Shown: piece by piece, positions 1-11,155 of the stretch
How the letters are laid out: each line of letters begins with the position of its first letter
Position numbering within the stretch: position 1 is the stretch's first letter
From: Candidatus Aenigmatarchaeota archaeon
GTDB lineage: Archaea > Aenigmatarchaeota > Aenigmatarchaeia > QMZP01
DNA length: 11,155 bases
Direction of reading: 5' to 3'
NCBI GenBank assembly: GCA_039091855.1
Contig: JAWCLA010000025.1
Location: 1-11,155, forward strand
Position numbers and translations under genes: made by a program
The notes under the pieces: model-generated
What the model was told of the DNA's origin: nothing
Database searches by the model: none
Seen by the model: the letters and a program-made list of their open reading frames with translations, nothing else

Positions 1-179
1 ATCTGGTATCCAAGATGGCTTATTGTCAATATTATGTCAGTTATGCCATAGTTCTTCAAGTATGATATTATGTGTTCCAGAATTGGCCTTTCCTTGAATG
101 GCAGGAGAGGCTTTGGCACAATATGGGTAAAAGGCCTTAACCTCGTTCCCTTCCCTCCAGCAAGAATGACGGCTTTCAT
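1..179 (-). CDS. Sugar-phosphate nucleotidyltransferase (NTP_transferase family), N-terminal part; runs off the window start
   Basis: Manual translation from the ATG at 179 (minus): MKAVILAGGKGTRLRPFTHIVPKPLLPFKERPILEHIISYLKNYGITDIILTISHLGYQ. It contains the LAGGxGTRLxPxTxxxPKPLLP signature. Not in the supplied ORF track. Confidence 0.93.
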   Translation of the reverse strand, partial: MKAVILAGGKGTRLRPFTHIVPKPLLPFKERPILEHIISYLKNYGITDIILTISHLGYQ

Positions 180-200
180 ATATTAATATCTTCCGAATGT

Positions 201-216
201 ATTAAAAAGTTTTTTT
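201..216 (-). promoter_or_regulatory. Putative BRE/TATA promoter of the nucleotidyltransferase (probably leaderless)
   Basis: Minus strand reads an A-run, then C-TTTTTAAT; the TATA-like box is 22-29 nt upstream of the ATG at 179. Confidence 0.5.
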
Positions 217-353
217 GGAACGGCTCACCAAATTAACAACTCTTGATAAATCAATGTAAAGAAAGAGTCAAGTTCCAAGAGATGTTACGTATAATAGCGA
301 AGATCGAAATATAATGCAGCAATTTATGAAGTGATTTCATAATATTCAGGTCA

Positions 354-1091
354 TTACTTGTCATAACTTGAAAAAATAACGGCATCTAAAACACAAGGAA
401 AAATATCAGACTCAGAACACCACTTTTGGATACCGTCCATAATCAATTCATAATAATTTTCATCAGATAATCCAGATGCAGATAATCTAAAAGGAAACCC
501 GTTTTTGTTTAACCATTTTATAATTCTGCTATCAATAGGAATTTCATATCTTGTTAGACCCAGGTCCTGCCAAAGGTTTCTTGATTGTTTAGGTCCAATG
601 CCTTTGAGCCTTTGGACTAATAAACAAGCTTTTCTTTCAATTTTGATTTTTTCTAAATTCGGGTTTTTTCTCGCTTCAACCAATTCATCATAAATTTCAT
701 TAACATTTTTCCAAAAACCATTTTCTAACAAACTAAAATTGTATTTAATTTCTTCACTGATTCTATTAGTTCTTCTTATTCCTCCAAATTTAGTTAAAAT
801 CTTAAAGGCATCTTTTTGCAGGTTTTCAGATTTTTTGCAAAAGTCATAATTCAAAGGAAACGGATTGAAAGTTAAGAATTTAAAAATTTTACTATTAGGT
901 CCTGATCTTTGTCGCGTTGTCAGAAGGCAGGAAATAATTTGTTTCCAAAATTCTTCTTTTGAAAAAAGAGGTGGATTATCTAATAAATTTCTTTTTATCC
1001 TTATTTTTACAAAATTATTTTCTTTGTGTATATTAACAAAACCCGTAAGCAATTTTATATCTTCATCTGTTATTATCCATTTAAATTTCAT
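354..1091 (-). CDS. HhH DNA glycosylase/AP-lyase-like protein, Ogg2 (8-oxoguanine glycosylase)-like, 245 aa
   Basis: HhH motif LKGIGPKQSRN with Lys at the catalytic position, followed by IPIDSRI (catalytic Asp); N-terminal EEFWKQIISCLLT and C-terminal VLDAVIF follow the archaeal Ogg2 pattern. Start placed at ATG 1091 (MKFKW) rather than the TTG at 1136. Confidence 0.65.
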   Translation of the reverse strand: MKFKWIITDEDIKLLTGFVNIHKENNFVKIRIKRNLLDNPPLFSKEEFWKQIISCLLTTRQRSGPNSKIFKFLTFNPFPLNYDFCKKSENLQKDAFKILTKFGGIRRTNRISEEIKYNFSLLENGFWKNVNEIYDELVEARKNPNLEKIKIERKACLLVQRLKGIGPKQSRNLWQDLGLTRYEIPIDSRIIKWLNKNGFPFRLSASGLSDENYYELIMDGIQKWCSESDIFPCVLDAVIFSSYDK

Positions 1092-1163
1092 ATTAAAAGA
1101 ATATTGTGAACTAACTTTATTAATTTGACCAAACAAAATGTTCGCTTAATAAAAAGCGAGTTT

Positions 1164-1301
1164 TCATTCCCCTGAAACAGCCCTTTTTCTTGCGCCCCAA
1201 AAGACAATGCTGCCGAGAAAAAATATTATCAACAGTGAAAGCCCGTAAAAAGCCGGCGGATTTGCTATCAGCATACCTATTAGGTCGGTTTCCCCTGCCA
1301 T
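1164..1301 (-). CDS. Small single-pass membrane protein, 45 aa
   Basis: Manual translation MAGETDLIGMLIANPPAFYGLSLLIIFFLGSIVFWGARKRAVSGE*. One hydrophobic helix followed by RKR; fills the gap between two same-strand genes. Confidence 0.6.
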   Translation of the reverse strand: MAGETDLIGMLIANPPAFYGLSLLIIFFLGSIVFWGARKRAVSGE

Positions 1302-1339
1302 AATGATCAATTAATAAATATTGGAAACAGAATTAAAAA

Positions 1340-2887
1340 CTAACGCTCAAGAATGAAATACTTCCTGTTCTTCTCAATCTCTGGAATCTCTGCCAGCATC
1401 ATCTCGGAGGTTTTGCCTATTCCCATCACGGTCAGGTCATTCTCCGACATTTGATCAAGCGTGCGCTCGAGCTTGTATCCCTTTTCAGCGAAAATCTCGA
1501 AAATCGTTTCGCCCTTCTTGACGCTGTCGCCTGTTTTTTTGTGGAGGAGTATCCCTGCTCCCTTGTCCTTCGGTGCGCCAGCCTCCCTGGCTATCTGGAC
1601 GATGGCTGTGTTGTTTATCCACAACACCTTTCCGGAAACCTTTGACTTTATCTGTAGCGATTCTTTTCCTATTGGTATATCCTCTGGTCTGATTTTCGGG
1701 TCACCGCCCTGCTCCCCTATTATTTGCCTGAACTTCCTCTCTGCCTTTCCTGACCTTATGATATCCATTGCTTTCTTATATCCATTCCTGATTCCTGCAA
1801 ACTTGAAGAGGACTGCACAGAGGTCGCAGACCTTGTCAAGCTGGTCCTGAGGAATCCTGTGTCCCGAAAGAATGTGGAGCGCTTCCCTCGCCTCAAGCGC
1901 TGGTCCTATTCCAAACCCTATCGGCTGCTCTCCAAACGTTGAAACGCACTCTACCCTTATGCCAAGTTTTTTCCCGAGTTCTATAAAGTTATTGCCCATT
2001 TCCTTCGCTTCATTTATCGTTCTTATCTTCACACCCTTCCCTGTCGGTATGTCAACCACAAGGTATTTTGAGCCTATTGCCTTCTTTTTTGACATCACCG
2101 AAGGCAGGAGAAGCGGGTCTATTGAAAGTGGATGCTCTATTTCTATGAATATGTCATCGGCAGGCGCCAGGTCAAGTGCACCTCCCCATACCAAGCAACC
2201 ATTGGTTTTCCTTACAACCCTTTTTATGTCATCGACAGAAAGGCTTACCGGGCATATGCATTCCATCTTGTCAGCTGTCCCGGCAGGAGCGGTTATTGCT
2301 CGCGAAGAGGTTTTTGCTATCGTAAGCCCTGCCGCAGCAACAGTTGGCACGAGAATCATAGACGTCTTGTCGCCGGGAACGCCACCAATGCTGTGCTTGT
2401 CATAAAGTGTTTTGTTTGTAAGCTTGAGCTTTTTTCCTGTTTCCACCATTGCCATAGAAAGAGCCGCTGCCTCTTCCATTGACATTGTCCTGTGATAGAG
2501 ACTTATTACAAACGATGTTATCTCTATTTCTGAAAGCTTGTGGTCAACAACATCATTAACTATCTGCCTTATTTCCATTGGCTTAAGGACTTTTCCTTCA
2601 AGCCTGCTTTTTATGTATGCCAGAGATTCTGGTGGTTCAGCAGGCTCGACCCTTATTTTTGTGCCTTTCTTTACGCACAAACCTTCCTCAACGCAGCCGT
2701 AAAGCCCTATCTCTCCAGGCTTCACAAAACTTTCTGTTATGTTCACTATGCCTATTTCTTTTTTGCCGTTGCAGGAGAGTTCAACCCTGTCCAATGCCCT
2801 GATGTCAAGCTCTTCTGCATCCTCCCTGTTTAGAATCACGATGGGTTTTTTCGCTTCCACGTATAACGGTTTTGCCTTGAGAAACAT
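1340..2887 (-). CDS. deoA: AMP phosphorylase (archaeal NMP phosphorylase, thymidine phosphorylase family)
   Basis: 515 aa with the extra N-terminal domain typical of archaeal AMP phosphorylases and motifs DKHSIGGVPGDKT, KTSSRAITAPAGTAD, WGGALDLAPADD, SVMSKK, QPIGFGIGPALEARE, AGAPKDKGAGI. Confidence 0.95.
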   Translation of the reverse strand: MFLKAKPLYVEAKKPIVILNREDAEELDIRALDRVELSCNGKKEIGIVNITESFVKPGEIGLYGCVEEGLCVKKGTKIRVEPAEPPESLAYIKSRLEGKVLKPMEIRQIVNDVVDHKLSEIEITSFVISLYHRTMSMEEAAALSMAMVETGKKLKLTNKTLYDKHSIGGVPGDKTSMILVPTVAAAGLTIAKTSSRAITAPAGTADKMECICPVSLSVDDIKRVVRKTNGCLVWGGALDLAPADDIFIEIEHPLSIDPLLLPSVMSKKKAIGSKYLVVDIPTGKGVKIRTINEAKEMGNNFIELGKKLGIRVECVSTFGEQPIGFGIGPALEAREALHILSGHRIPQDQLDKVCDLCAVLFKFAGIRNGYKKAMDIIRSGKAERKFRQIIGEQGGDPKIRPEDIPIGKESLQIKSKVSGKVLWINNTAIVQIAREAGAPKDKGAGILLHKKTGDSVKKGETIFEIFAEKGYKLERTLDQMSENDLTVMGIGKTSEMMLAEIPEIEKNRKYFILER

Positions 2888-3074
2888 TTTCCTTCCTCTT
2901 TTGCCATATTAATTAATTTGTATATATTATATCCTTGTCCGTATTTAAGCCAATATAAATAACCCACCATTTACAGGTCATTTATTCCAAAAACAAGAAA
3001 AAATCTGCGATAGCTTTAAAAGCTTATTCCGTATGCGCTTAAAAATTTTTGCATTTATAGTAAAAGTAGGTACC

Positions 3075-5231
3075 ATGAAAGGGAAATTCTTTGTGATTGG
3101 GCTTCTGCTTGTTTTGGGAAGCATTATCACGGCTGATGATGTTGTTGGGCAGGTCTGGGCGCAGAGCTTCGAGCTTGAAATTATTCCTTCCTCTGTTTCA
3201 ACCTGCACCTGCAGCTCACTGACTCCGCAGAATGTCCAGATATCAGTCAAGAACCTTTACCAGTATGCAGACACATTCTCATTTACAGTTGAGGCTCCAC
3301 CAGGCTTCACGTCCACGATCCAGAGCAACGTTATGGTTAACCCTGGCGAAAAAAGGAATCTTGATTTGTTTCTTGTGAACATTGGTTGCAATGTTCAGCC
3401 AGGACCTTATAAGCTAAAGATAAAGGCAAAATCGGGCACAACAGGAGAAACAATAACAAAAACAGTTGACATTGATGTAATGAATTGCTATGAGGTTCAG
3501 CTTGAGATAGAGAGCAAGTTCAGGGAGCTTTGCAGGGAGGAAAACAAGTCCGTGATTTTTGACATGATTATAAAAAACAAGGGCAAGTACACCGACACCT
3601 ATGAACTAACTGCATCAGTTCCTTGGGCTCTTTTTTCAGACAACAGCTTTACAATAGAGGCTGGAAAGTCAAAGAGTGTAGGGCTTGCTCTTGTGCCGCC
3701 TGAGACAGCAACAGGATTGCAGAATGTTAATGTTGTAGTTAAATCGCAGAAATTCTACTCAACGGACAGCGAAACGGTGCAGATTGACATAAAGGATTGC
3801 TATCAGATGTCTGCGGACCTTCAGCCAAGTGAGGCAAAGATATGCCTTGGGGAAACAGTTACGCAAAAATTGACAATAACCAACACGGGCTTGAGGGAAG
3901 ACAACTTTTCCATCTCTGTTCCAAACTGGGTAACTTTGGACAGGCAGTCTGTCTCAATAAGCCCAAAGAAAACAGGTGATGTGAAACTTACCTTTACACC
4001 CAGCCAGAAAGGAAGGACACAATTCATTATTAATGTCACTTCTTCAAATGACCCGAAAATCTTAAAAACAATCTCATCGGTTGTTGACGCGGAGGAGTGC
4101 AGGGGAGTTGCTGTTATAGTGTCTCCTTCAAAGTCAACAGTATGCCAAGGCGTGAAGTCTGATTTTCTTGTTTCTGTTAAGAACCTCGGAAAGATACAGG
4201 ACAGCTTCAACCTCACTTCAAACATAGGCGTTTTGGAAGTTAACAAGGTTGTCCTTGGTCCGGGGGAAACTGAGGAATTGAAGCTTGAGGTTTCAAACAT
4301 AACTGTACCGGGAACTTACAAGATAAGGGTAAGGGCAGAATCGGGTGATGTTTCTGACGAGGGAACGGCCGAGTTCATTGTGGAAAACTGTTATTCAGCC
4401 TCAGTTGACATTTCACCTCAAAATCACTCAACCTGCGCAGGTTCTCCTGTCAGCTACACTGTTGCAGTGAAGAACACGGGAAAGCTTGCAGAGGAGTTTA
4501 TGGTTTCAGTTGAAAGCGATTTAGGTAACGAAACAAGGTCCGTAAAACTTCAACCGGGAGAGGCAAAGACAGAGAATTTTGTTGTTTCAGTTCCCCTTCT
4601 CGCTGAAGGAAGGGAGCATTCAATAAAAGCGTCGGCGAAATCTGTCCATACCTCTGCAGAGATAATGACAACGCTTCTTGTCAAGTCTGCACCGCAATGC
4701 CATTCAGTTCAGGTATGCACGGTTGAGGATAAGCTTGTCGCTCTCTGCAACGCGACAGCAATACCTGTTATTATAAAGAATACGGGAGAGAAGAGTGACA
4801 AGTACAACATAAGCGTTGAGGCACCTTCCTGGGTTTACCTGAGCCCTGATTATGCAGAGCTTGCTCCCGGCAAGCAACAGATAGTTTATCTCTACCTTTC
4901 ACCCTGCATAGGAGTTGAAAAGGGCGTTTACGAGCTTAAGCTTAATGTAATCTCGCCTAACACAAGGACACAGTATGAAGTTGGGGTTGGTGTGGTTCCG
5001 GAGATAACAGGCACCCCACCTGAAGAAAAAATTGTGTGCAAAGGTCCTCCTGCCCCGCCTGCAATCACAGAGAATGTAACAGCAGGAAATGTAACACAGC
5101 CAGTAACAGGAAACGTAACAGGGCTCATACTTGGAATTGACACAAACACCTGGAAGATAATAGCAATAGTTATAATAACCCTGGTAATAATAATAATTCT
5201 CGCAATAAGGTTCATACTGCTGGCGAAATAG
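3075..5231 (+). CDS. Secreted, C-terminally membrane-anchored surface protein with about six Ig-like (NEW3/CARDB/COG1470-like) repeats
   Basis: From ATG 3075: signal-peptide-like MKGKFFVIGLLLVLGSII..., ~100-aa modules with xNxGxxxD/E-F/Y motifs, a Pro/Thr-rich linker with NVT sequons, and a C-terminal hydrophobic helix with basic residues. The ORF-track start at 3033 is less likely. Confidence 0.8.
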   Translation: MKGKFFVIGLLLVLGSIITADDVVGQVWAQSFELEIIPSSVSTCTCSSLTPQNVQISVKNLYQYADTFSFTVEAPPGFTSTIQSNVMVNPGEKRNLDLFLVNIGCNVQPGPYKLKIKAKSGTTGETITKTVDIDVMNCYEVQLEIESKFRELCREENKSVIFDMIIKNKGKYTDTYELTASVPWALFSDNSFTIEAGKSKSVGLALVPPETATGLQNVNVVVKSQKFYSTDSETVQIDIKDCYQMSADLQPSEAKICLGETVTQKLTITNTGLREDNFSISVPNWVTLDRQSVSISPKKTGDVKLTFTPSQKGRTQFIINVTSSNDPKILKTISSVVDAEECRGVAVIVSPSKSTVCQGVKSDFLVSVKNLGKIQDSFNLTSNIGVLEVNKVVLGPGETEELKLEVSNITVPGTYKIRVRAESGDVSDEGTAEFIVENCYSASVDISPQNHSTCAGSPVSYTVAVKNTGKLAEEFMVSVESDLGNETRSVKLQPGEAKTENFVVSVPLLAEGREHSIKASAKSVHTSAEIMTTLLVKSAPQCHSVQVCTVEDKLVALCNATAIPVIIKNTGEKSDKYNISVEAPSWVYLSPDYAELAPGKQQIVYLYLSPCIGVEKGVYELKLNVISPNTRTQYEVGVGVVPEITGTPPEEKIVCKGPPAPPAITENVTAGNVTQPVTGNVTGLILGIDTNTWKIIAIVIITLVIIIILAIRFILLAK

Positions 5232-5235
5232 CAAA

Positions 5236-5414
5236 TTACGGCTTTTCGAGCTGCCGCTTCCAAATCTCGAAAGACGGCCTTGTATGGTTTGTCCAAGCCG
5301 TCAATCCCAATTCGGCCGTATAGCAAAAACCTGAGAAAAATTTTTACGGCTTTTCGAGCTGCCGCTTCCAAATCTCGAAAGACGGCCTTGTATGGTTTGT
5401 CCAAGCCGTCAATC
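5236..5414. repeat. Perfect 71-bp direct repeat (5236-5306 and 5344-5414), each copy with two stem-loops
   Basis: TTACGGCTTTTCGAGCTGCCGCTTCCAAATCTCGAAAGACGGCCTTGTATGGTTTGTCCAAGCCGTCAATC occurs twice, separated by 37 bp, between convergent genes. Confidence 0.95.
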
Positions 5415-5543
5415 TAACTTTGGCCTGAATATGCCGCCGGCGCATTTTTGAGCATCCATATCAGCAGGTATGTTGTGCCACAGGCACCTGCCGACTTTTT
5501 TTGTTACAGGAACGAAAAACCTGCATTCAGAACACTTAGGCAT
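5409..5543 (-). CDS. 44-aa Cys-rich mini-protein, putative Fe-S/metal binding (HpdC/BssC-like Cys pattern)
   Basis: Manual translation MPKCSECRFFVPVTKKVGRCLWHNIPADMDAQKCAGGIFRPKLD*. The ATG overlaps the upstream stop (ATGCCTAA) and is preceded by AAGGAGGAAGGAT (strong SD-like sequence). Confidence 0.75.
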   Translation of the reverse strand: MPKCSECRFFVPVTKKVGRCLWHNIPADMDAQKCAGGIFRPKLD

Positions 5544-6177
5544 ATCCTTCCTCCTTCCTGTATTCAAAATATGAGTAAACAGTCGTGAATATGAAAATTA
5601 ATATCAAAACGAACAGCAACAGGATAAAAAAATCCTGCGAAACGAAAAATCCGAGCAGGAAAACTATAGAGTATGCCTCAAGCAGCCTGCCTCCAAGGCG
5701 GTTGGTTTTTTCCCAAACCTTGTCGCTGCTGAGCGTCCAGGGTGTTCTTATCCCAATGAACCAGTTCCTCTTGGATTTCGTGCAAAGGAATCCAACATAA
5801 AACAAAAGCGAAGAAACGCAGGGTATTATGGCTTTTGCTGTATCAATTCCCAATCCTAGATTTGATGCAGCGACAATAAGATAAATGTAAAGCATAAAAC
5901 CTGCAGACAAAACAACCATCCCGTCATAATAAATTATGAATTTTTTTATGTTCTTCCTGAGCGGGTCGATTTTTGGTATAACAAGCAAAAGCCCGTAAAT
6001 TCCCAATGCAAGGCTCAGGAAAAACGCGGAAAAAAACTCTTTGCTCATAAAGCCATCAGGCTTTCCCTGAAAGTTCCAGTGAGTAACAATTATTTCAGGA
6101 AGCAGGAAGTAAAGCCAGGCAACTGCAAATGCCAACAATAGAAAAATCCCGAGTGAGAGATATTGGAGTTTTCTCAT
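5536..6177 (-). CDS. SdpI/YhfL family membrane protein with N-terminal DUF1648, 213 aa
   Basis: Motifs LPEIIVTHWNFQGKPDGFMSK and RNWFIGIRTPWTLSSDKVWEKTNRLGG; several TM helices. Start at ATG 6177 avoids overlap with the divergent carbamate kinase. Confidence 0.9.
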   Translation of the reverse strand: MRKLQYLSLGIFLLLAFAVAWLYFLLPEIIVTHWNFQGKPDGFMSKEFFSAFFLSLALGIYGLLLVIPKIDPLRKNIKKFIIYYDGMVVLSAGFMLYIYLIVAASNLGLGIDTAKAIIPCVSSLLFYVGFLCTKSKRNWFIGIRTPWTLSSDKVWEKTNRLGGRLLEAYSIVFLLGFFVSQDFFILLLFVLILIFIFTTVYSYFEYRKEEGYA

Positions 6178-6208
6178 ATTATTTAGTTTGTTTGTAAAAA
6201 TATATAAT
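6178..6208. promoter_or_regulatory. Compact divergent promoter region (31 bp)
   Basis: TTATATAT on the minus strand (6200-6207) lies 23-30 nt before ATG 6177; a weaker TTATTTAG on the plus strand (6179-6186) lies 23-30 nt before ATG 6209. Confidence 0.5.
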
Positions 6209-7111
6209 ATGAAATCCCGAAAAAACCTTGTGGTCATAGCCTTGGGTGGGAACAGCCTTCTTAGAGCAAGAGAGAAGTTTTCCATTCACAATGAGATCGA
6301 GCATGTCAGGAATGCCTGCCTTATGATAAGCAGGATTTCCAAAATGGGTCACAGGATCGTAATCACGCACGGAAACGGCCCGCAGGTTGGAGAGATTCTT
6401 TTGAGACAAAAACAATCAAAAAACCTCCCCCCGCTGCCGCTTGATGTCTGCGTTGCCCAGACGCAGGGAGAGATAGGATACATAATCCAGAGGGAGCTAA
6501 TGCCTCTTGTAAAAAAGCCTGTTGTAACAATCCTAACACAGGTGGTTGTGAATAGGAAAGACCCTGCATTCAAAAACCCAACAAAATTCATAGGCCCGTT
6601 TTTCCAAAAAAAGCAGCCTGGAATGAAAAGGGATTCCAACAGGGGATACAGGAAGGTAGTCCCTTCTCCTGAACCACTTGAGATTGTGGAGACAGGGGAA
6701 ATTCGCAGGCTGATTGATGAGGATTTCATAGTAATAGCCTGTGGAGGCGGGGGAATACCTGTTTTCAGGACAAAAACGGGATTTGAAGGTGTAGAGGCAG
6801 TGATAGACAAGGATTTGGCTTCGGAAAGGCTTGCCACTTCCCTGCAAGCTGAAACGCTTCTCATCCTTACAGATGTCCCTTTCGTTTACAGGGATTATGG
6901 GACAAAAAGCCAGGAACCTCTCCGCAAACTCTCTATTTCAGATGCACTATCGCTTTATAATTCCGGCCAGTTCCCTCCCGGAAGTATGGGTCCAAAAATG
7001 CTGGCATCTATAAGGTTCATAAAAAATGGCGGTTCAAGGTCCATAATAACATCGCCTGAAAAGGCGGTTGATGCGCTGAAAGGAAAGACGGGGACGGAGA
7101 TAGTTTATTAG
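6209..7111 (+). CDS. arcC: Carbamate kinase
   Basis: Motifs VIALGGNSLL, ITHGNGPQVG, AQTQGEIGY, DPAFKNPTKFIGPF, RKVVPSPEP, GGGGIPV, GVEAVIDKD, FPPGSMGPK. Start at ATG 6209. Confidence 0.96.
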   Translation: MKSRKNLVVIALGGNSLLRAREKFSIHNEIEHVRNACLMISRISKMGHRIVITHGNGPQVGEILLRQKQSKNLPPLPLDVCVAQTQGEIGYIIQRELMPLVKKPVVTILTQVVVNRKDPAFKNPTKFIGPFFQKKQPGMKRDSNRGYRKVVPSPEPLEIVETGEIRRLIDEDFIVIACGGGGIPVFRTKTGFEGVEAVIDKDLASERLATSLQAETLLILTDVPFVYRDYGTKSQEPLRKLSISDALSLYNSGQFPPGSMGPKMLASIRFIKNGGSRSIITSPEKAVDALKGKTGTEIVY

Positions 7112-7118
7112 TCGTGTA

Positions 7119-7125
7119 TTTATAA
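7119..7125 (+). promoter_or_regulatory. Putative TATA box for tspO
   Basis: TTTATAA 23-29 nt upstream of ATG 7148; no SD visible before the ATG. Confidence 0.5.
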
Positions 7126-7147
7126 GTCAGCAAAAAATATCTAAAAG

Positions 7148-7615
7148 ATGAAAAACTACCAGAAGCTCATAATCTCAGTTTTGATACCCTTATCAGTTGG
7201 TTTTTTGGGATCTTTCTTTACTTCCAGCTCTGTCGAAAGCTGGTACTTGACGCTGAACAAGCCAGAATTCAACCCGCCTAACTGGCTGTTTGCGCCTGTG
7301 TGGACTTTTCTTTTCATACTTATGGGGGTTTCATTTTACCTTGTGTGGAAAATTGATTTTGGAGGCAAGAGAAATTCCCTGATTGGGATTTATTCCTTTC
7401 AGCTTTCACTCAATTTGCTGTGGTCCCTTCTTTTTTTCGGCATAAGAAACCCGTTTTTTGCCCTTGTAGAAATAATCTTTTTGTGGTTCGCAATTATGAT
7501 GAACGTTTTAGTTTTTTACAAGGCATCAAAAAATTCAGGGCTTTTATTGATACCATATCTGATGTGGGTAAGCTTCGCCTCTGTTCTTAATTATTTTGTA
7601 GTTATTCTTAACTAA
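7148..7615 (+). CDS. tspO: TspO/MBR tryptophan-rich sensory protein
   Basis: Motifs WYLTLNKPEFNPPNWLFAPVWT, QLSLNLLWSLLFFG, LLIPYLMWVSFASVLNY. Confidence 0.95.
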   Translation: MKNYQKLIISVLIPLSVGFLGSFFTSSSVESWYLTLNKPEFNPPNWLFAPVWTFLFILMGVSFYLVWKIDFGGKRNSLIGIYSFQLSLNLLWSLLFFGIRNPFFALVEIIFLWFAIMMNVLVFYKASKNSGLLLIPYLMWVSFASVLNYFVVILN

Positions 7616-7625
7616 GGGGATAAAA

Positions 7626-8069
7626 TTGCGCCTTTGGTCAATTCATCCCAAATATTTGGACAGGGCAGGTCTTTTGGCTGTGTGGAGGGAAGGTTTGCTT
7701 GCCAAGAAAGTCATCCAAAACAAAACAAAAGGTTACAAAAAGCATCCACAATTGGTTCGGTTCAAAAAGTGCAAAGACCCCGTTTTTGCGATAGAATGCT
7801 ATCTTTTTGAGATATACAAGGAGGCTGAAAGAAGGGGCTACAATTTTGACATTAAAAAAATAAATCGTCCTGAAGAAAGCTGCAAACCAAAGGGGCTGAT
7901 AAGCGTAACCTCAGGGCAGGCTGAGTTCGAATTCAGGCACTTACTGAAGAAGCTAAAAACGAGGGACAAGCCAATATTCGATAAAATAAAAAACACCAAG
8001 GAAATAGAATTGAATCCGATTTTCATAAAAATTCCAGGAAAAAAGGAAAGTTGGGAAAAGGGTTCGTAA
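7626..8069 (+). CDS. Pyrimidine dimer DNA glycosylase / T4 endonuclease V family protein
   Basis: N-terminus MRLWSIHPKYLDRAGLLAVWREGLLA, then GYKKHPQLVRF, EAERRGYNFD and VTSGQAEFEFRHL. TTG start preceded by GGGGA, 10 bp after the tspO stop. Confidence 0.88.
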   Translation: MRLWSIHPKYLDRAGLLAVWREGLLAKKVIQNKTKGYKKHPQLVRFKKCKDPVFAIECYLFEIYKEAERRGYNFDIKKINRPEESCKPKGLISVTSGQAEFEFRHLLKKLKTRDKPIFDKIKNTKEIELNPIFIKIPGKKESWEKGS

Positions 8070-8108
8070 TAATTTTTCACTCGCAAAAAATCAATATCAA
8101 AAATATGA

Positions 8109-8151
8109 AAAGGAGCCCTTATCCACGAACATCGCGATAAGCGGCTCCTTT
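8109..8151. terminator. Stem-loop downstream of the tspO/glycosylase pair; possible terminator or 3' stabilising hairpin
   Basis: AAAGGAGCC(8109-8117)+CTTATC(8118-8123) pair with GATAAG(8136-8141)+GGCTCCTTT(8143-8151), with one bulged C; followed by a pyrimidine tract. Confidence 0.5.
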
Positions 8152-8229
8152 CCTCTCCCCTCTCCCCTTAGCGGTACTAATTTATATGTATGAGGATATT
8201 TAAATACTTTTCTGTCCCAAAATTATTAC

Positions 8230-8271
8230 AGAAACCTTTATTTCCTATGGAGAAAGGTTTATTTCCAATGG
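8230..8271. promoter_or_regulatory. Tandem 21-bp imperfect repeat with internal dyads, putative operator upstream of trkH
   Basis: AGAAACCTTTATTTCCTATGG / AGAAAGGTTTATTTCCAATGG, 18 of 21 identical. Confidence 0.4.
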
Positions 8272-8308
8272 AATTTTTTTGATTGCAAAATCCGCACTGC
8301 TTATTGAT

Positions 8309-8315
8309 TTTTATA
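8309..8315 (+). promoter_or_regulatory. Putative TATA box for trkH
   Basis: TTTTATA 23-29 nt upstream of ATG 8338. Confidence 0.45.
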
Positions 8316-8337
8316 CCCCAAACCTCAATAAAATAGT

Positions 8338-9732
8338 ATGGAATTCCGCTCAATTCTTTCCTATTTGGGAACAGTGCTGGAAATAAACGGAATATTGGCA
8401 ATATTGCCAGTTTTCGTTTCTTGGATATATAACGAGAGCACTCACACGCTGTTTTTTGTTACCGCTGTGATATCCTTCATATCAGGAATAGCTATTGACA
8501 GGAAGTTCAGGAAGAAGGAACTTGGCATAAGCTCTGCAATGGTTCTGGCGAGCGTGAGCCTGATAACAGTTTCGCTTGTCGGTGCAATACCATTTCTCTG
8601 GAATCTAAGTCCATTGGACGCTGTTTTTGAGAGCGTCTCCGGTTTTACAACAACAGCCTTTACCACCGTAAAGCCTGAAAGCCTGCCTTATTCAATTGTT
8701 TTCTGGAGGTCGCTTATGCAATGGGCAGGTGGGTTGGGGACAGTGATTATTTTTATTCATCTTGCAATTTCTCCCGGAATTTCCTCTTATTATGGAAGGA
8801 AGCCCGAAATTGATGAGGCAAGAAAAAAACTACTGCCAAAAAAGGCAGCCTTCATTTATGTTGGCATAACTTTTGTCGGTTTTGTTCTGCTTTTGCTGAC
8901 AGGAATTGGTGCTTTTGATTCTGCCGTGACAAGCATGTCTTCTGTTTCAACAGGAGGGTTTTCAGCAAAAAATGACTCCATAGGTGCTTACAACAACATA
9001 TGGGTTGAGGCAGTGGCGATTTTCCTTATGATAGCAGGTGCCACATCCTTACTGCTTATTGAGGGTTTCACTAGGGGAAGGGTTTTTGAATACCTCAAAA
9101 GCGCTGAAACAAGGCTTTTCTGGGTTTTGATATTCATTTTCACTATATTCCTTTCCTTCTCAATGGTTGCGCAGGAGCCTGTTAGAGCTGCTCTGTTCAC
9201 TACGATTTCAGCAATCACAACAACAGGCTTCTCAACACATTCCACATACTCAGGCCTTTCCATGCTACTGATTATAGTTTTGATGATAATAGGAGGCTAT
9301 GGGGCATCAACAGCAGGAGGGATTAAGCTTTGCAGAACAGGAATAATTGGAAAATCATTCCCCTGGATAGGCAAGAAAATCACGCTTCCGCAGGAGGCTG
9401 TCGTTCCTCTGAAATATGACGAAAGGGTGATAAGGGATTCTGAAGTCACGACCATTGCCATTTTCGTTTCAATATACGTTCTCTTCCTTTTCGGGACAGC
9501 AGTACTACTTAGCTTTATGGGATATCCGCCGCTCGAATCGATTTTTCAGGCAGCATCGGCGCAGGGAAACGTTGGGCTTTCCGCAATTCCCATTGAAAGC
9601 ATAAACCCGCTTGGAAAGGTAGTATTGATGTGCAGCATGGTCATAGGCAGGCTCGAGATATTCCCTGTGCTGGGGTTTCTATACATTCTTGTTAAAACAA
9701 GGATTGGAAGAAAGGAAATAATTAGTGGGTAA
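8338..9732 (+). CDS. trkH: TrkH family potassium uptake membrane subunit
   Basis: Four pore-loop motifs (FESVSGFTTTAF, SVSTGGFS, AITTTGFS, SAQGNVGLS) plus FWRSLMQWAGGLG, STAGGIK and MVIGRLEIFP. Confidence 0.94.
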   Translation: MEFRSILSYLGTVLEINGILAILPVFVSWIYNESTHTLFFVTAVISFISGIAIDRKFRKKELGISSAMVLASVSLITVSLVGAIPFLWNLSPLDAVFESVSGFTTTAFTTVKPESLPYSIVFWRSLMQWAGGLGTVIIFIHLAISPGISSYYGRKPEIDEARKKLLPKKAAFIYVGITFVGFVLLLLTGIGAFDSAVTSMSSVSTGGFSAKNDSIGAYNNIWVEAVAIFLMIAGATSLLLIEGFTRGRVFEYLKSAETRLFWVLIFIFTIFLSFSMVAQEPVRAALFTTISAITTTGFSTHSTYSGLSMLLIIVLMIIGGYGASTAGGIKLCRTGIIGKSFPWIGKKITLPQEAVVPLKYDERVIRDSEVTTIAIFVSIYVLFLFGTAVLLSFMGYPPLESIFQAASAQGNVGLSAIPIESINPLGKVVLMCSMVIGRLEIFPVLGFLYILVKTRIGRKEIISG

Positions 9733-9917
9733 AATCTTGGTTACTCTGCAATCTTTAGCCAGAAGATAGTTGGTAGTGTCAATATTACATATGCGTCATC
9801 CATCGAAACAGTGGAATTTCCGCCTCTATACAACTTACTTTATTTTTCTGTAAAAATCCAGGTGGATATATAAATACATAGATGTTATTTTACATATTTG
9901 AAATGGAGGTGGGCAAT

Positions 9918-10205
9918 ATGATGTCCGAAATACCGAAAAGCCTTTCAAAGGTGAGGCAGGAAGAGCTAAACAAGGAGATACTCAGGGTTGGAATGATAGC
10001 TGAGCTTGACGCAGTTAATCTCTATGAGCAGTTGGCTGCAATGACGACAAACGCTGACATAAGGAAGGTCCTTATGGACATAGCGAAAGAGGAGAAGACC
10101 CACATAGCAGAGTTTGAGACAATGCTCTTGAGGATGGACAAGGAACAGGTTCAGGAACACGAGAATGGAAGGAAGGAGGTTGAGGAGCTGACAGGAAAGA
10201 AATAA
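9918..10205 (+). CDS. Small ferritin-like (rubrerythrin/encapsulated-ferritin Flp-type) protein, ~95 aa
   Basis: IAELDAVNLYEQ and DIAKEEKTHIAEF di-iron ligand pattern. SD GGAGGTG at 9905-9911 supports a start at 9918 or 9921; TATATAAA at 9867-9874. Confidence 0.88.
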   Translation: MMSEIPKSLSKVRQEELNKEILRVGMIAELDAVNLYEQLAAMTTNADIRKVLMDIAKEEKTHIAEFETMLLRMDKEQVQEHENGRKEVEELTGKK

Positions 10206-10390
10206 ATCCTGTCAGTATTATTTTTTGCTTTGTAATGCAATTCAATAATGATTTATCTCACCCACTTACACGCTTCTAAAATTAAGTATATAAAACCAAT
10301 TAATTATTTAATAGACTGACGACTTAATGTCATCCAACAAGTAGTTAGTGATTGCCTTGGTAGTGTAGCGGTCTAGCATATGGGACTGTC

Positions 10391-10574
10391 ATAACCTTTT
10401 CCTCAAGGGAAAAGCTTAACCAAAAGGGGAGGCTGAGGCCTTCCAACATTGGGAATAACCTTTTCCTCAAGGGAAAAGCTTAACCAAAAGGGGAGGCTGA
10501 GGCCTTCCAACATTGGGAATAACCTTTTCCTCAAGGGAAAAGCTTAACCAAAAGGGGAGGCTGAGGCCTTCCAA
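10391..10574 (+). repeat. 64-nt tandem repeat, two full copies plus a 56-nt third copy, inside tRNA intron 1
   Basis: Unit ATAACCTTTTCCTCAAGGGAAAAGCTTAACCAAAAGGGGAGGCTGAGGCCTTCCAACATTGGGA at 10391-10454 and 10455-10518; first 56 nt again at 10519-10574. No mismatches seen. Confidence 0.97.
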
Positions 10575-10599
10575 ATGAAATGAGAAAAAGGTTGTAGAG
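10392..10599 (+). other. tRNA intron 1 at canonical position 37/38, 208 nt
   Basis: BHB motif: TGGGA-CTGT-CA^T-AACCTTTTCCTCA paired with TGAGAAAAAGGTT-GTAG-AG^C-TCCCA. The central helix CTGT/GTAG has two G-U pairs; 12 of 13 pairs form in the intron helix. Confidence 0.88.
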
Positions 10600-10620
10600 C
10601 TCCCATGACCCGGGTTCAAA

Positions 10621-10702
10621 TCCACAAAGGGCTCCCTTTATTAATACAGGCAACTGATGCCCTTTTAGTATGTTCCAAAAATAAATAATGGTGTGGTGAC
10701 CA
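10621..10702 (+). other. tRNA intron 2 at non-canonical T-loop position 59/60, 82 nt
   Basis: Relaxed BHB: CCGGG-TTCA-AA^T-CCAC paired with GTGG-TGAC-CA^T-CCCGG (3 of 4 central pairs). Cutting after the second base of each bulge regenerates CCGGGTTCAAATCCCGG exactly. Confidence 0.85.
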
Positions 10703-10716
10703 TCCCGGCCAAGGCG

Positions 10717-11155
10717 TAGGGTCTCAGGTAAGACTCCCTCATCCATCGATAAATATTCGAAGACAAAAGGTCTACCATGGACCCTTACAACCAAATTTCA
10801 AACAAAATAAACAAGATTAAGGCTGATGATGGGATTACCCCTAAGAACAAGCTTCTCCTTGAGAAGTTCAGGGACTACTGCCTTGCCAACTCTTTATCTG
10901 TTAGGAGGATATTGAAATACCTGCACTACTTATCCGTCCATGCAAAGATTCTTGGGAAGGACTTCGATTCAGCAACAAAAGAGGACATCCAGCTTCTTGT
11001 TGCTGAGATAGAAAAGAAGGAATGGGCAGAATGGACAAAATACGACAACAAGATGATGATCAAGACTTTCTACAAGTGGCTTGAGGGAGATGGGGAGGCC
11101 TTCCCAAAGAAAGTTGCCTGGCTAAAGGCAAAAGTCAAAAGCAACAGGCTGATTG
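10717..11155 (+). mobile_element. Probable left boundary of an integrated element (provirus/plasmid/island) at tRNA-Asp
   Basis: An integrase-like gene starts 60 bp after the tRNA 3' end; the second att copy is not visible in the window. Confidence 0.6.
10777..11155 (+). CDS. Tyrosine recombinase/integrase, N-terminal (core-binding, SAM-like) part; runs off the window end
   Basis: Open frame from ATG 10777: MDPYNQISNKINKIKADDGITPKNKLLLEKFRDYCLANSLSVRRILKYLHYLSVHAKILGKDFDSATKEDIQLLVAEIEKKEWAEWTKYDNKMMIKTFYKWLEGDGEAFPKKVAWLKAKVKSNRLI. The LS..RI.KY / F..ATKEDI..LV..IE / WTK.D.K...K.FYKWL / P..V.W.K pattern is typical of archaeal tRNA-adjacent integrases. Catalytic residues lie outside the window. 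Confidence 0.8.
   Translation, partial: MDPYNQISNKINKIKADDGITPKNKLLLEKFRDYCLANSLSVRRILKYLHYLSVHAKILGKDFDSATKEDIQLLVAEIEKKEWAEWTKYDNKMMIKTFYKWLEGDGEAFPKKVAWLKAKVKSNRLI

Follow-up and report, generated by a model that had tools for sequence, protein, structure and literature searches.

A transfer RNA (tRNA) gene for aspartate, tRNA-Asp(GUC), lies close to the 3′ end of an 11,155-nt contig (JAWCLA010000025.1) of the Candidatus Aenigmatarchaeota archaeon assembly GCA_039091855.1, and the canonical intron of this gene consists almost entirely of identical tandem copies of a 64-nt unit. The contig was analysed in its full length and is called the window here; it is the entire contig C18 of the assembly, designated G000, which comprises 689,355 bases in 38 contigs and is 84% complete. 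The array probably originates from a recent amplification, at the DNA level, of a selfish or neutral dispersed repeat within an intron which, as it would be spliced out of the sole tRNA-Asp(GUC) gene, might serve the repeat as a 'safe harbour'. Such a role of the intron had been suggested by an original prediction made from the DNA sequence alone, and it fits the evidence, since the unit was found to belong to a dispersed family of two-hairpin elements.

The one strong array that Tandem Repeats Finder reported for the window covers 10391-10574 (period 64, 2.9 copies, 100% matches, 0 indels, score 368). Its first base is the exonic A37, and the 183 remaining bases belong to the 208-nt intron 1, exactly as the original prediction had counted them. 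The minimum-free-energy fold of the unit (−23.6 kcal/mol) consists of the two hairpins that had been named there; dinucleotide shuffling gave z = −2.43, and 5 of 200 shuffled sequences were as stable. Within each unit an 8-nt joiner at the end pairs with the linker between the hairpins, by which the unit closes on itself. In the unique tail between the array and the 3′ splice site, the 3′ arm of hairpin 1 occurs a second time; the tail also contains the motif TGAAATGAG, which is common to another tRNA intron, located on contig C8 of the relative G003.

A covariance model of the element, R1, was used for searching related genomes. It covers the first 44 positions only; a whole-element MAFFT alignment misaligned the 3′ ends. 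At E ≤ 0.01, R1 had matches in 67 of the order's 91 genomes; in a sample of 151 genomes drawn from the whole phylum, 60 were positive. The highest loads were 53 copies in G027, 32 in G068, 31 in G062 and 30 in G018, and the only matches in G000 were the three array copies (55.7 bits, E = 8.7e-10 for copy 1). As a control of specificity, 48 genomes of the families f11 (0/10), f13 (0/31) and f16 (0/7) gave no match at all. A blastn-short search with the unit itself revealed no further occurrence in the G000 assembly, the remaining matches being 19 nt or shorter. Thus, the comparison with genome and mobile elements that had been proposed originally produced no other close copy in this genome, but a large family in its order. 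By eye, diverged copies with weaker scores were recognised in G000 in the 37/38 intron of a tRNA-Glu gene (C7), in a tRNA on C19, in a T-loop intron on C10 and in the 5S rRNA region of C1.

All members of the family have the same layout, namely a variable A/U-rich hairpin 1, a linker of the form AAnCAAAA and a hairpin 2 with the base GGAGSC...GSCUUCC. Hairpin 2 is capped by a tetraloop in members from this genus, and elsewhere by an A/T-rich extension of 20-40 nt. Compensatory changes were found in 7 of the 9 pairs of hairpin 1 (alignment of 18 sequences). The 3′ strand of hairpin 2, which lies outside R1, follows downstream with at least six of seven pairs in 34 of 48 distinct copies (script count, fixed register). 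The other 14 copies were left out of the table of hairpin-2 pairs; 13 of them have four or five pairs and mostly belong to a GGAGCU...CGCUUCC subtype, and one is located at a contig end. The inner pairs of hairpin 2 alternate between G-C (15), C-G (12) and U-A (2). According to this, both hairpins named in the original prediction are borne out by covariation in relatives in addition to the predicted fold. Two further likenesses were considered for hairpin 2 and rejected. Its long form resembles domain V of group II introns by eye; the AGC triad is not conserved (AGG here) and the other intron domains are absent. A K-turn was discarded as well, as tandem G.A pairs are absent.

For comparing the introns of tRNA-Asp genes, 40 relatives were searched with the region, and the mature tRNA obtained by in silico splicing was aligned to the orthologous loci with long gaps allowed. 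Alignments of distant tRNA-Asp genes are unreliable at the acceptor ends, and the rows of the genus and the near family were relied on. The genus comprises five genomes, which share the same gene downstream of tRNA-Asp. In G000 introns are present at 37/38 (208 nt) and in the T-loop (82 nt), with none in the D-loop; G003 has introns in the D-loop (34 nt) and at 37/38 (74 nt) and none in the T-loop. The three other genomes lack the 37/38 intron and have one intron each, which is located in the T-loop in G004 (102 nt) and G002 (37 nt) and in the D-loop in G001 (32 nt). The 74-nt intron of G003 occupies the syntenic locus and can be aligned end to end with copy 3 plus tail of the G000 intron (55 of 81 columns identical); between the two introns, the changes in hairpin 1 are paired. 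A single-unit intron of about 80 nt, as had been predicted for relatives, therefore does exist in the same genus. Altogether, the 37/38 intron is present in nine and absent in four of the 13 relatives with an aligned tRNA-Asp locus; the nine include G009, whose intron (about 104 nt) is masked as N and not comparable in content. A copy of the element was detected inside the 37/38 intron of five of these 13 relatives, with E ≤ 1e-8 in G003, G018, G034 and G037 and E = 8.7e-4 in G022. The introns at 59/60 of G002, G004 and G019 are unrelated to intron 2 of G000. As judged by eye, the T-loop introns of the G004 tRNA-Asp and of a G002 tRNA-Cys (C7) have long blocks in common; they constitute a second intron family common to different tRNA types.

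The element is not confined to tRNA-Asp genes. It occupies both the D-arm and the 37/38 intron of tRNA-Asp in G034, the 37/38 intron of tRNA-Cys in G001, G002 and G003, another tRNA in G003, and T-loop introns in G036 and G068; removal of about 208 nt from the G068 locus yields a tRNA-Val(TAC) cloverleaf. A further copy resides within the 23S rRNA gene on contig C2 of G034 (Rfam LSU_rRNA_archaea, 517 bits). As looked for in a transposed intron, R1 matches with E ≤ 1e-8 are thus distributed over different genes and sites, i.e. Asp D-arm, Asp 37/38, Cys 37/38, Val T-loop and 23S rRNA. Introns are, nevertheless, one niche of a mainly extragenic repeat. In G027, the most complete of the high-load genomes (96%), 21 copies were examined, these being the 20 top-scoring ones listed and one fetched earlier. 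At gene boundaries 14 of the 21 were found and 7 elsewhere. In 11 copies the 5′ end abuts CAT, with which an open frame of at least 50 codons on the opposite strand begins (ATG); in three, a long frame on the same strand ends in a stop codon formed by the first bases of the copy. The long A/T-rich palindromic hairpin-2 top of the G027 copies appears TATA-like by eye, and the boundary copies might carry candidate promoter signals.

Tandem pile-ups recur in the family, and the tRNA-Asp array is no one-off. A spacer on contig C90 of G019 contains two complete, identical 88-nt units and a third that has diverged, and tandem units also occur in G058 (C6, 55 nt) and G062 (C138, 81 nt). Moreover, the T-loop introns on contigs C16 of G036 and C12 of G068 are filled by diverged tandem and inverted copies of the element. 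Two additional long-period arrays detected by Tandem Repeats Finder in G000 are built from a different hairpin module (GAAG/CTTC), common to both; one is located at C13:8923-9105 (80 nt × 2.3, 100%, 183 nt) and the other at C4:9108-9357 (80 nt × 3.1, 80%). Both lie directly upstream of protein genes, and the start-codon context of the respective gene recurs in every unit.

The tRNA-Asp gene extends from 10354 to 10716 and would give a 363-nt precursor of three exons and two introns (in silico splicing; coordinates of all parts are given in the table). Exon-intron borders were scored for the bulge-helix-bulge (BHB) motif, whose central helix H (4 bp) has a 3-nt bulge at either end and is followed by an outer helix (h) on one side and an inner helix (h′) on the other. 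The location of the array in a BHB intron of tRNA-Asp, which the original prediction had assumed, was confirmed by a strict motif at intron 1 (H 4/4, h 5/5, h′ 8/8; bulges CAU and AGC; cuts 10391/10392 and 10599/10600). That prediction had, however, set the 3′ end of the tRNA near 10635 and overlooked a second intron; the true end is 10716. Removal of intron 1 alone leaves a mismatched T-stem and acceptor stem, whereas removal of both introns yields a perfect cloverleaf with a 7-bp acceptor stem and a 5-bp T-stem, which ARAGORN then, and only then, calls as tRNA-Asp(gtc). Five pairs of cut sites lead to the same mature sequence for intron 2. As only one of them forms a BHB motif (10620/10621 with 10702/10703; H 3/4, h 5/5, h′ 5/5, bulges AAU and CAU), intron 2 was placed at 59/60. 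Of 200,000 site pairs drawn at random from the window, 2 reached a motif score as high as this. Exon 1 is 97% identical in G004 and G002, and a TATAAA(A)CCAA motif precedes the orthologous gene in G000, G002, G003 and G004, with varying spacing to the 5′ end of the tRNA. In the minimum-free-energy fold of the whole precursor, the inner helix of intron 1 is preserved together with the acceptor and anticodon stems.

The enzymes for splicing and ligation are encoded in the assembly. The tRNA-intron endonuclease EndA (PF01974) was detected at two loci (C12:5584-5856, 94.8 bits, and C19:768-1283), and the ligase RtcB (PF01139) at C10:538-1842 (561 bits). One of the EndA matches lies in a 204-aa frame; the other frame, of 418 aa, contains two domain matches and possibly represents a fused or two-unit form.

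At the unspliced locus no tRNA was called by ARAGORN (default settings; introns up to 400 nt) or by Rfam. This failure of the standard finders could be taken as a sign of a decaying pseudogene in which the repeats mark a lost function. Such an origin is extremely improbable in view of the perfect cloverleaf after removal of both introns and the perfect BHB motif of intron 1; moreover, no other tRNA-Asp gene exists in the assembly, and nearly all tRNA genes of G000 are missed for the same reason. Indeed, ARAGORN found a single uninterrupted tRNA gene in the 689 kb of G000, and the Rfam tRNA model gave no match above cut-off and six at E ≤ 1. Nearly all tRNA genes of this genome thus appear to be interrupted and invisible to the standard finders, and as a consequence the tRNA counts of metagenome-assembled genomes of this kind will be badly underestimated.

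These data are consistent with the following course of events. The ancestral 37/38 intron would have been about 80 nt long and would have consisted of one copy of the dispersed two-hairpin element. A 64-nt stretch of it may recently have been amplified in tandem to two or three identical copies, either by slippage, by unequal recombination, or by unequal exchange after a second copy had inserted next to the first. The splicing endonuclease would read the BHB motif alone. To this motif the array contributes the 5′ arm of its first unit, the other parts coming from the anticodon loop and from the unique tail at the 3′ end; an expansion of the array would hence be tolerated and the whole array excised. 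The exons would then be joined by RtcB, and the excised intron RNA would presumably be degraded or circularised. The tolerance of expansion was assessed by a folding comparison of the precursor, in which the native array was compared with versions lacking one or two units and the BHB motif was either enforced or left free. As calculated from ensemble free energies, the cost of forcing the motif is about 7.5 kcal/mol at 0.9, 1.9 and 2.9 copies alike, i.e. the copy number of the array makes no difference to predicted BHB formation.

Several points weigh against a recent, neutral amplification in an intron that is spliced out. The strict BHB conformer is predicted to be rare at every copy number (probability 4.8-4.9e-6 in a nearest-neighbour model), a low absolute value that results from the fact that the model ignores the enzyme, and the splicing of both introns is itself predicted from the sequence. 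The covarying stems show that selection has acted on the structure somewhere in the family, which pure neutrality leaves unexplained. Furthermore, the 8-nt joiner is missing both from the single-copy intron of G003 and from the tail of the G000 intron. Plain slippage from the single-copy state therefore cannot yield the unit, and the first duplication needs filler sequence or the insertion of a second copy.

Two points concern the number of copies. Parts of the window are contained in contigs that a different assembler made from four sequencing runs (X1-X4), all belonging to a single hot-spring study. These runs may be the source of the assembly; some parts of the window are without cover in some of them. 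Among 12 runs listed, none recorded as RNA contained the window. In X1, X2 and X4 a contig of 94 nt was found that lies wholly within the array and shows 0 differences. Since it is longer than the unit, it crosses a unit-to-unit junction, and at least two copies are therefore real. Its length (64 + 30) would be that of a tandem repeat read as a closed loop in a 31-mer graph. None of the contigs of these runs spans the array, and 2.9 is a provisional copy number. The k-mer depth of the loop compared to that of the left-flank contig was 5.83 vs. 3.11 in X1 and 6.5 vs. 4.3 in X2; this points only roughly to two or three copies, and according to the tool a depth must not be taken for a copy number. 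With respect to the read-based check advocated originally, the junction of at least two copies was thus verified, and the figure of 2.9 was not. It could accordingly be argued that the copy number is a product of assembly, with two copies, or several alleles mixed, at the true locus and 2.9 as just one path through the loop of the graph. The unbridged array and its collapse to the closed 94-nt contig would fit, as would the depth ratios of 1.5-1.9, which are below the value of about 2.4 expected for 184 nt, and the similar total length of the second perfect array on C13. We regard this as unlikely, however, because the junction is present in three runs with 0 differences; the depth, moreover, is low (3-6×) and provides no measure of copy number. 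The exact sequences of the unit junction, the tail and the border between exon 1 and the intron gave 0 matches in public collections of metagenome and genome contigs, from which the window's own genome records were perhaps excluded.

Over positions 10706-10800, contigs of markedly higher depth (13.9-42.3 compared to about 3-6 for this strain) are identical to the window from 10706 on and unlike it upstream, and loose contig ends at 10706 occur in all four runs (4/4). There seems to be a co-occurring relative with the same exon 3 and downstream gene and a different T-loop intron.

The foreign joiner could also be accounted for by an insertion of element into element instead of slippage, if the family prefers inserting at its own ends. 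In other genomes adjacent copies do lie only 0-20 nt apart, and many of them have diverged or are in inverted orientation (G036, G068, and L048/L050 of G027), an arrangement that slippage cannot give. Against this, the array copies are identical, both joiners included, and a donor copy was not found elsewhere in the 84%-complete assembly. Moreover, neither type of mobility enzyme follows the load of elements, although most genomes are incomplete. The Y1 transposase (PF01797) is present in 17 of the 91 genomes of the order and in two of the eight genomes with at least 20 copies. Reverse transcriptase (PF00078) is likewise present in 17 of 91, in one of these eight, and not in G000. No duplication of flanking sequence, as would be looked for in a MITE, was seen by eye at intron copies. 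Taken together, an origin of the array by such insertion in place of slippage is distinctly unlikely. In G000, matches to IS200/IS605-type Y1 transposases were noticed on C37 (7094-7453 and 9001-9324), one of them with an in-frame TAG.

Another possible explanation is a function of the array itself; the original prediction had considered the release of an abundant, possibly circular, multi-hairpin RNA. The intron would then release a stable, perhaps RtcB-circularised RNA of three modules that acts in trans, for instance as a sponge or by multivalent binding of a protein, and its copy number would be under selection. In favour of this, compensatory changes have preserved both hairpins throughout the family, most shuffled versions of the unit fold less well than the unit itself (the z value given above), and the pairing of joiner and linker closes each unit; archaeal introns can indeed carry functional RNAs, such as the C/D guide in the tRNA-Trp intron (from the reference list of PMC4090602). 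We nevertheless consider such a function very unlikely. The copies are 100% identical, the closest relative has a single copy and three others do without the 37/38 intron, which marks the array as young and dispensable in the genus. Most copies in G027 are situated at gene boundaries, many of them antisense to the neighbouring gene, and this does not suit an intron-specific RNA acting in trans. A box C/D small RNA (sRNA), for which a C box (RUGAUGA) near the 5′ end, a D box (CUGA) near the 3′ end and a terminal stem were demanded, was rejected, as intron 1 contains 0 C boxes, CTGA is confined to the loops of the three copies of hairpin 2, and an Rfam search of the whole window (E ≤ 1) gave no match in intron 1. 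In the same search a tmRNA-like match at 7423-7531 was attributed to chance (10.5 bits vs. a cut-off of 47).

Table. Parts of the tRNA-Asp(GUC) locus and of the tandem array in its first intron (positions in the window)
Feature	Position	Strand	Basis or remark
TATA-like box, putative archaeal promoter	10287..10299	+	A/T-rich TATAAA(A)CCAA
Exon 1, tRNA positions 1-37, anticodon GTC	10354..10391	+	Cloverleaf after in silico splicing
Repeat unit copy 1	10391..10454	+	Hairpin 1, AAnCAAAA linker, hairpin 2, 8-nt joiner; Tandem Repeats Finder; fold
Intron 1, 208 nt, canonical 37/38 (predicted)	10392..10599	+	Strict hBHBh′ motif
Repeat unit copy 2	10455..10518	+	Identical to copy 1; Tandem Repeats Finder 100%; R1 55.5 bits
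Repeat unit copy 3, partial	10519..10574	+	56 nt, without the 8-nt joiner; Tandem Repeats Finder; R1 55.5 bits
Unique tail of intron 1	10575..10599	+	3′ strand of inner helix h′ 10586-10593, 3′ strand of helix H 10594-10597, 3′ bulge
Exon 2, tRNA positions 38-59	10600..10620	+	Joined directly to exon 1 in G004, G002 and G001; cloverleaf
Intron 2, 82 nt, T-loop 59/60 (predicted)	10621..10702	+	BHB motif, one mismatch in H
Exon 3, tRNA positions 60-73, discriminator G, CCA not encoded	10703..10716	+	Completes T-stem and acceptor; matched in G004 and G019

The remainder of the window is unremarkable. Positions 1-10205 contain ordinary genes for a nucleoside phosphorylase-like protein, a 732-aa surface protein with Ig-like/CARDB domains, an SdpI-like protein, an amino-acid kinase, TspO, a pyrimidine-dimer glycosylase, TrkH and a rubrerythrin-like protein. 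Downstream of the tRNA, an open reading frame (10777-11154, + strand) runs off the contig end; it shows a weak match to the N-terminal SAM-like domain of phage integrases (E = 2.7e-4, below the Pfam cut-off). As this frame also follows tRNA-Asp in G003, G004 and G002, it probably encodes a resident Xer-type recombinase rather than part of an integrated element.

While the locus alone is of moderate interest, the repeat family may bear on how archaeal introns are gained. The 37/38 intron exists in three states within one genus (absent, one copy, about three copies), the copies of the array are so young as to be identical, and the family lives outside genes and within tRNA and rRNA introns alike; as a consequence, growth and gain of introns become testable. 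It is conceivable, if on balance doubtful, that the element is a vehicle for gaining protein-free introns, in that its 5′ arm and a second 3′ arm further downstream would make up the inner helix of a BHB motif, by which an element landing in a structured RNA could be spliced out and persist. If this holds true, the array, the polymorphism within the genus and the T-loop intron of the co-occurring relative would represent intron gain that is running now and can be traced in a natural community. In any case, this tiny hot-spring archaeon offers a snapshot of archaeal tRNA intron growth and turnover.

Among the systems to which the element can be compared are the REP/BIME palindromic repeats, which are said to be mobilised by RAYT Y1 transposases. 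They, too, are short structured repeats at gene boundaries and are often clustered in tandem or in alternating orientation. In contrast, the Y1 transposase was present here in only 17/91 genomes and in 2/8 with the highest load, and the element also lives inside tRNA and rRNA introns. As for the benefit of interrupted tRNA genes, a hypothesis of Randau and Söll reportedly holds that the disruption protects against integrating elements.

Extensive interruption of tRNA genes has been described for DPANN archaea. According to the available portions of PMC5829648, many tRNA genes are heavily disrupted in those with loop-bearing α4 EndAs, and the tRNA sets predicted for them are incomplete. The multi-intron genes of DPANN/ARMAN members resemble the present one in having introns at 59/60 and other non-canonical sites, and standard predictors do not recover a full tRNA set in those genomes either; introns made of repeated modules, as found here, are not described in those portions. 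The tRNA-Trp intron with the box C/D guide (known to us from the reference list of PMC4090602) is likewise a long BHB intron at the canonical position with internal structure. Unlike that intron, intron 1 of the tRNA-Asp gene has no C box, its CTGA motifs lie in hairpin loops, and no snoRNA or sRNA of Rfam matched it. A 2026 preprint on Asgard tRNA introns, in which Thermoproteales served as positive control, contains 0 occurrences of the word 'tandem', and the open-access literature yielded no paper on the two-hairpin element or on tRNA introns of tandem repeats. The two-hairpin module, its mainly extragenic life and its tandem growth inside introns were thus not found in print.

The closest parallel is provided by the Thermoproteales, in which similar introns are common to different tRNA genes; this was read as transposition by a mechanism that is unknown (Fujishima et al. 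2010, as cited in PMC4090602). As far as the accessible parts of PMC4090602 go, the origin and the mode of movement of archaeal BHB introns have been unknown since that finding. Judged by the same parts, the element described here shares with the Thermoproteales introns the BHB boundaries and an unknown mechanism of spread, and it likewise occurs in several genes (Asp, Cys and Val introns as well as 23S rRNA). It differs from them, within what that source offers for comparison, in being a compact two-hairpin module that is mostly extragenic and abuts start or stop codons in 14/21 of the G027 copies, in its tandem multiplication inside introns, and in its host, which is a DPANN-type archaeon and not a crenarchaeon.

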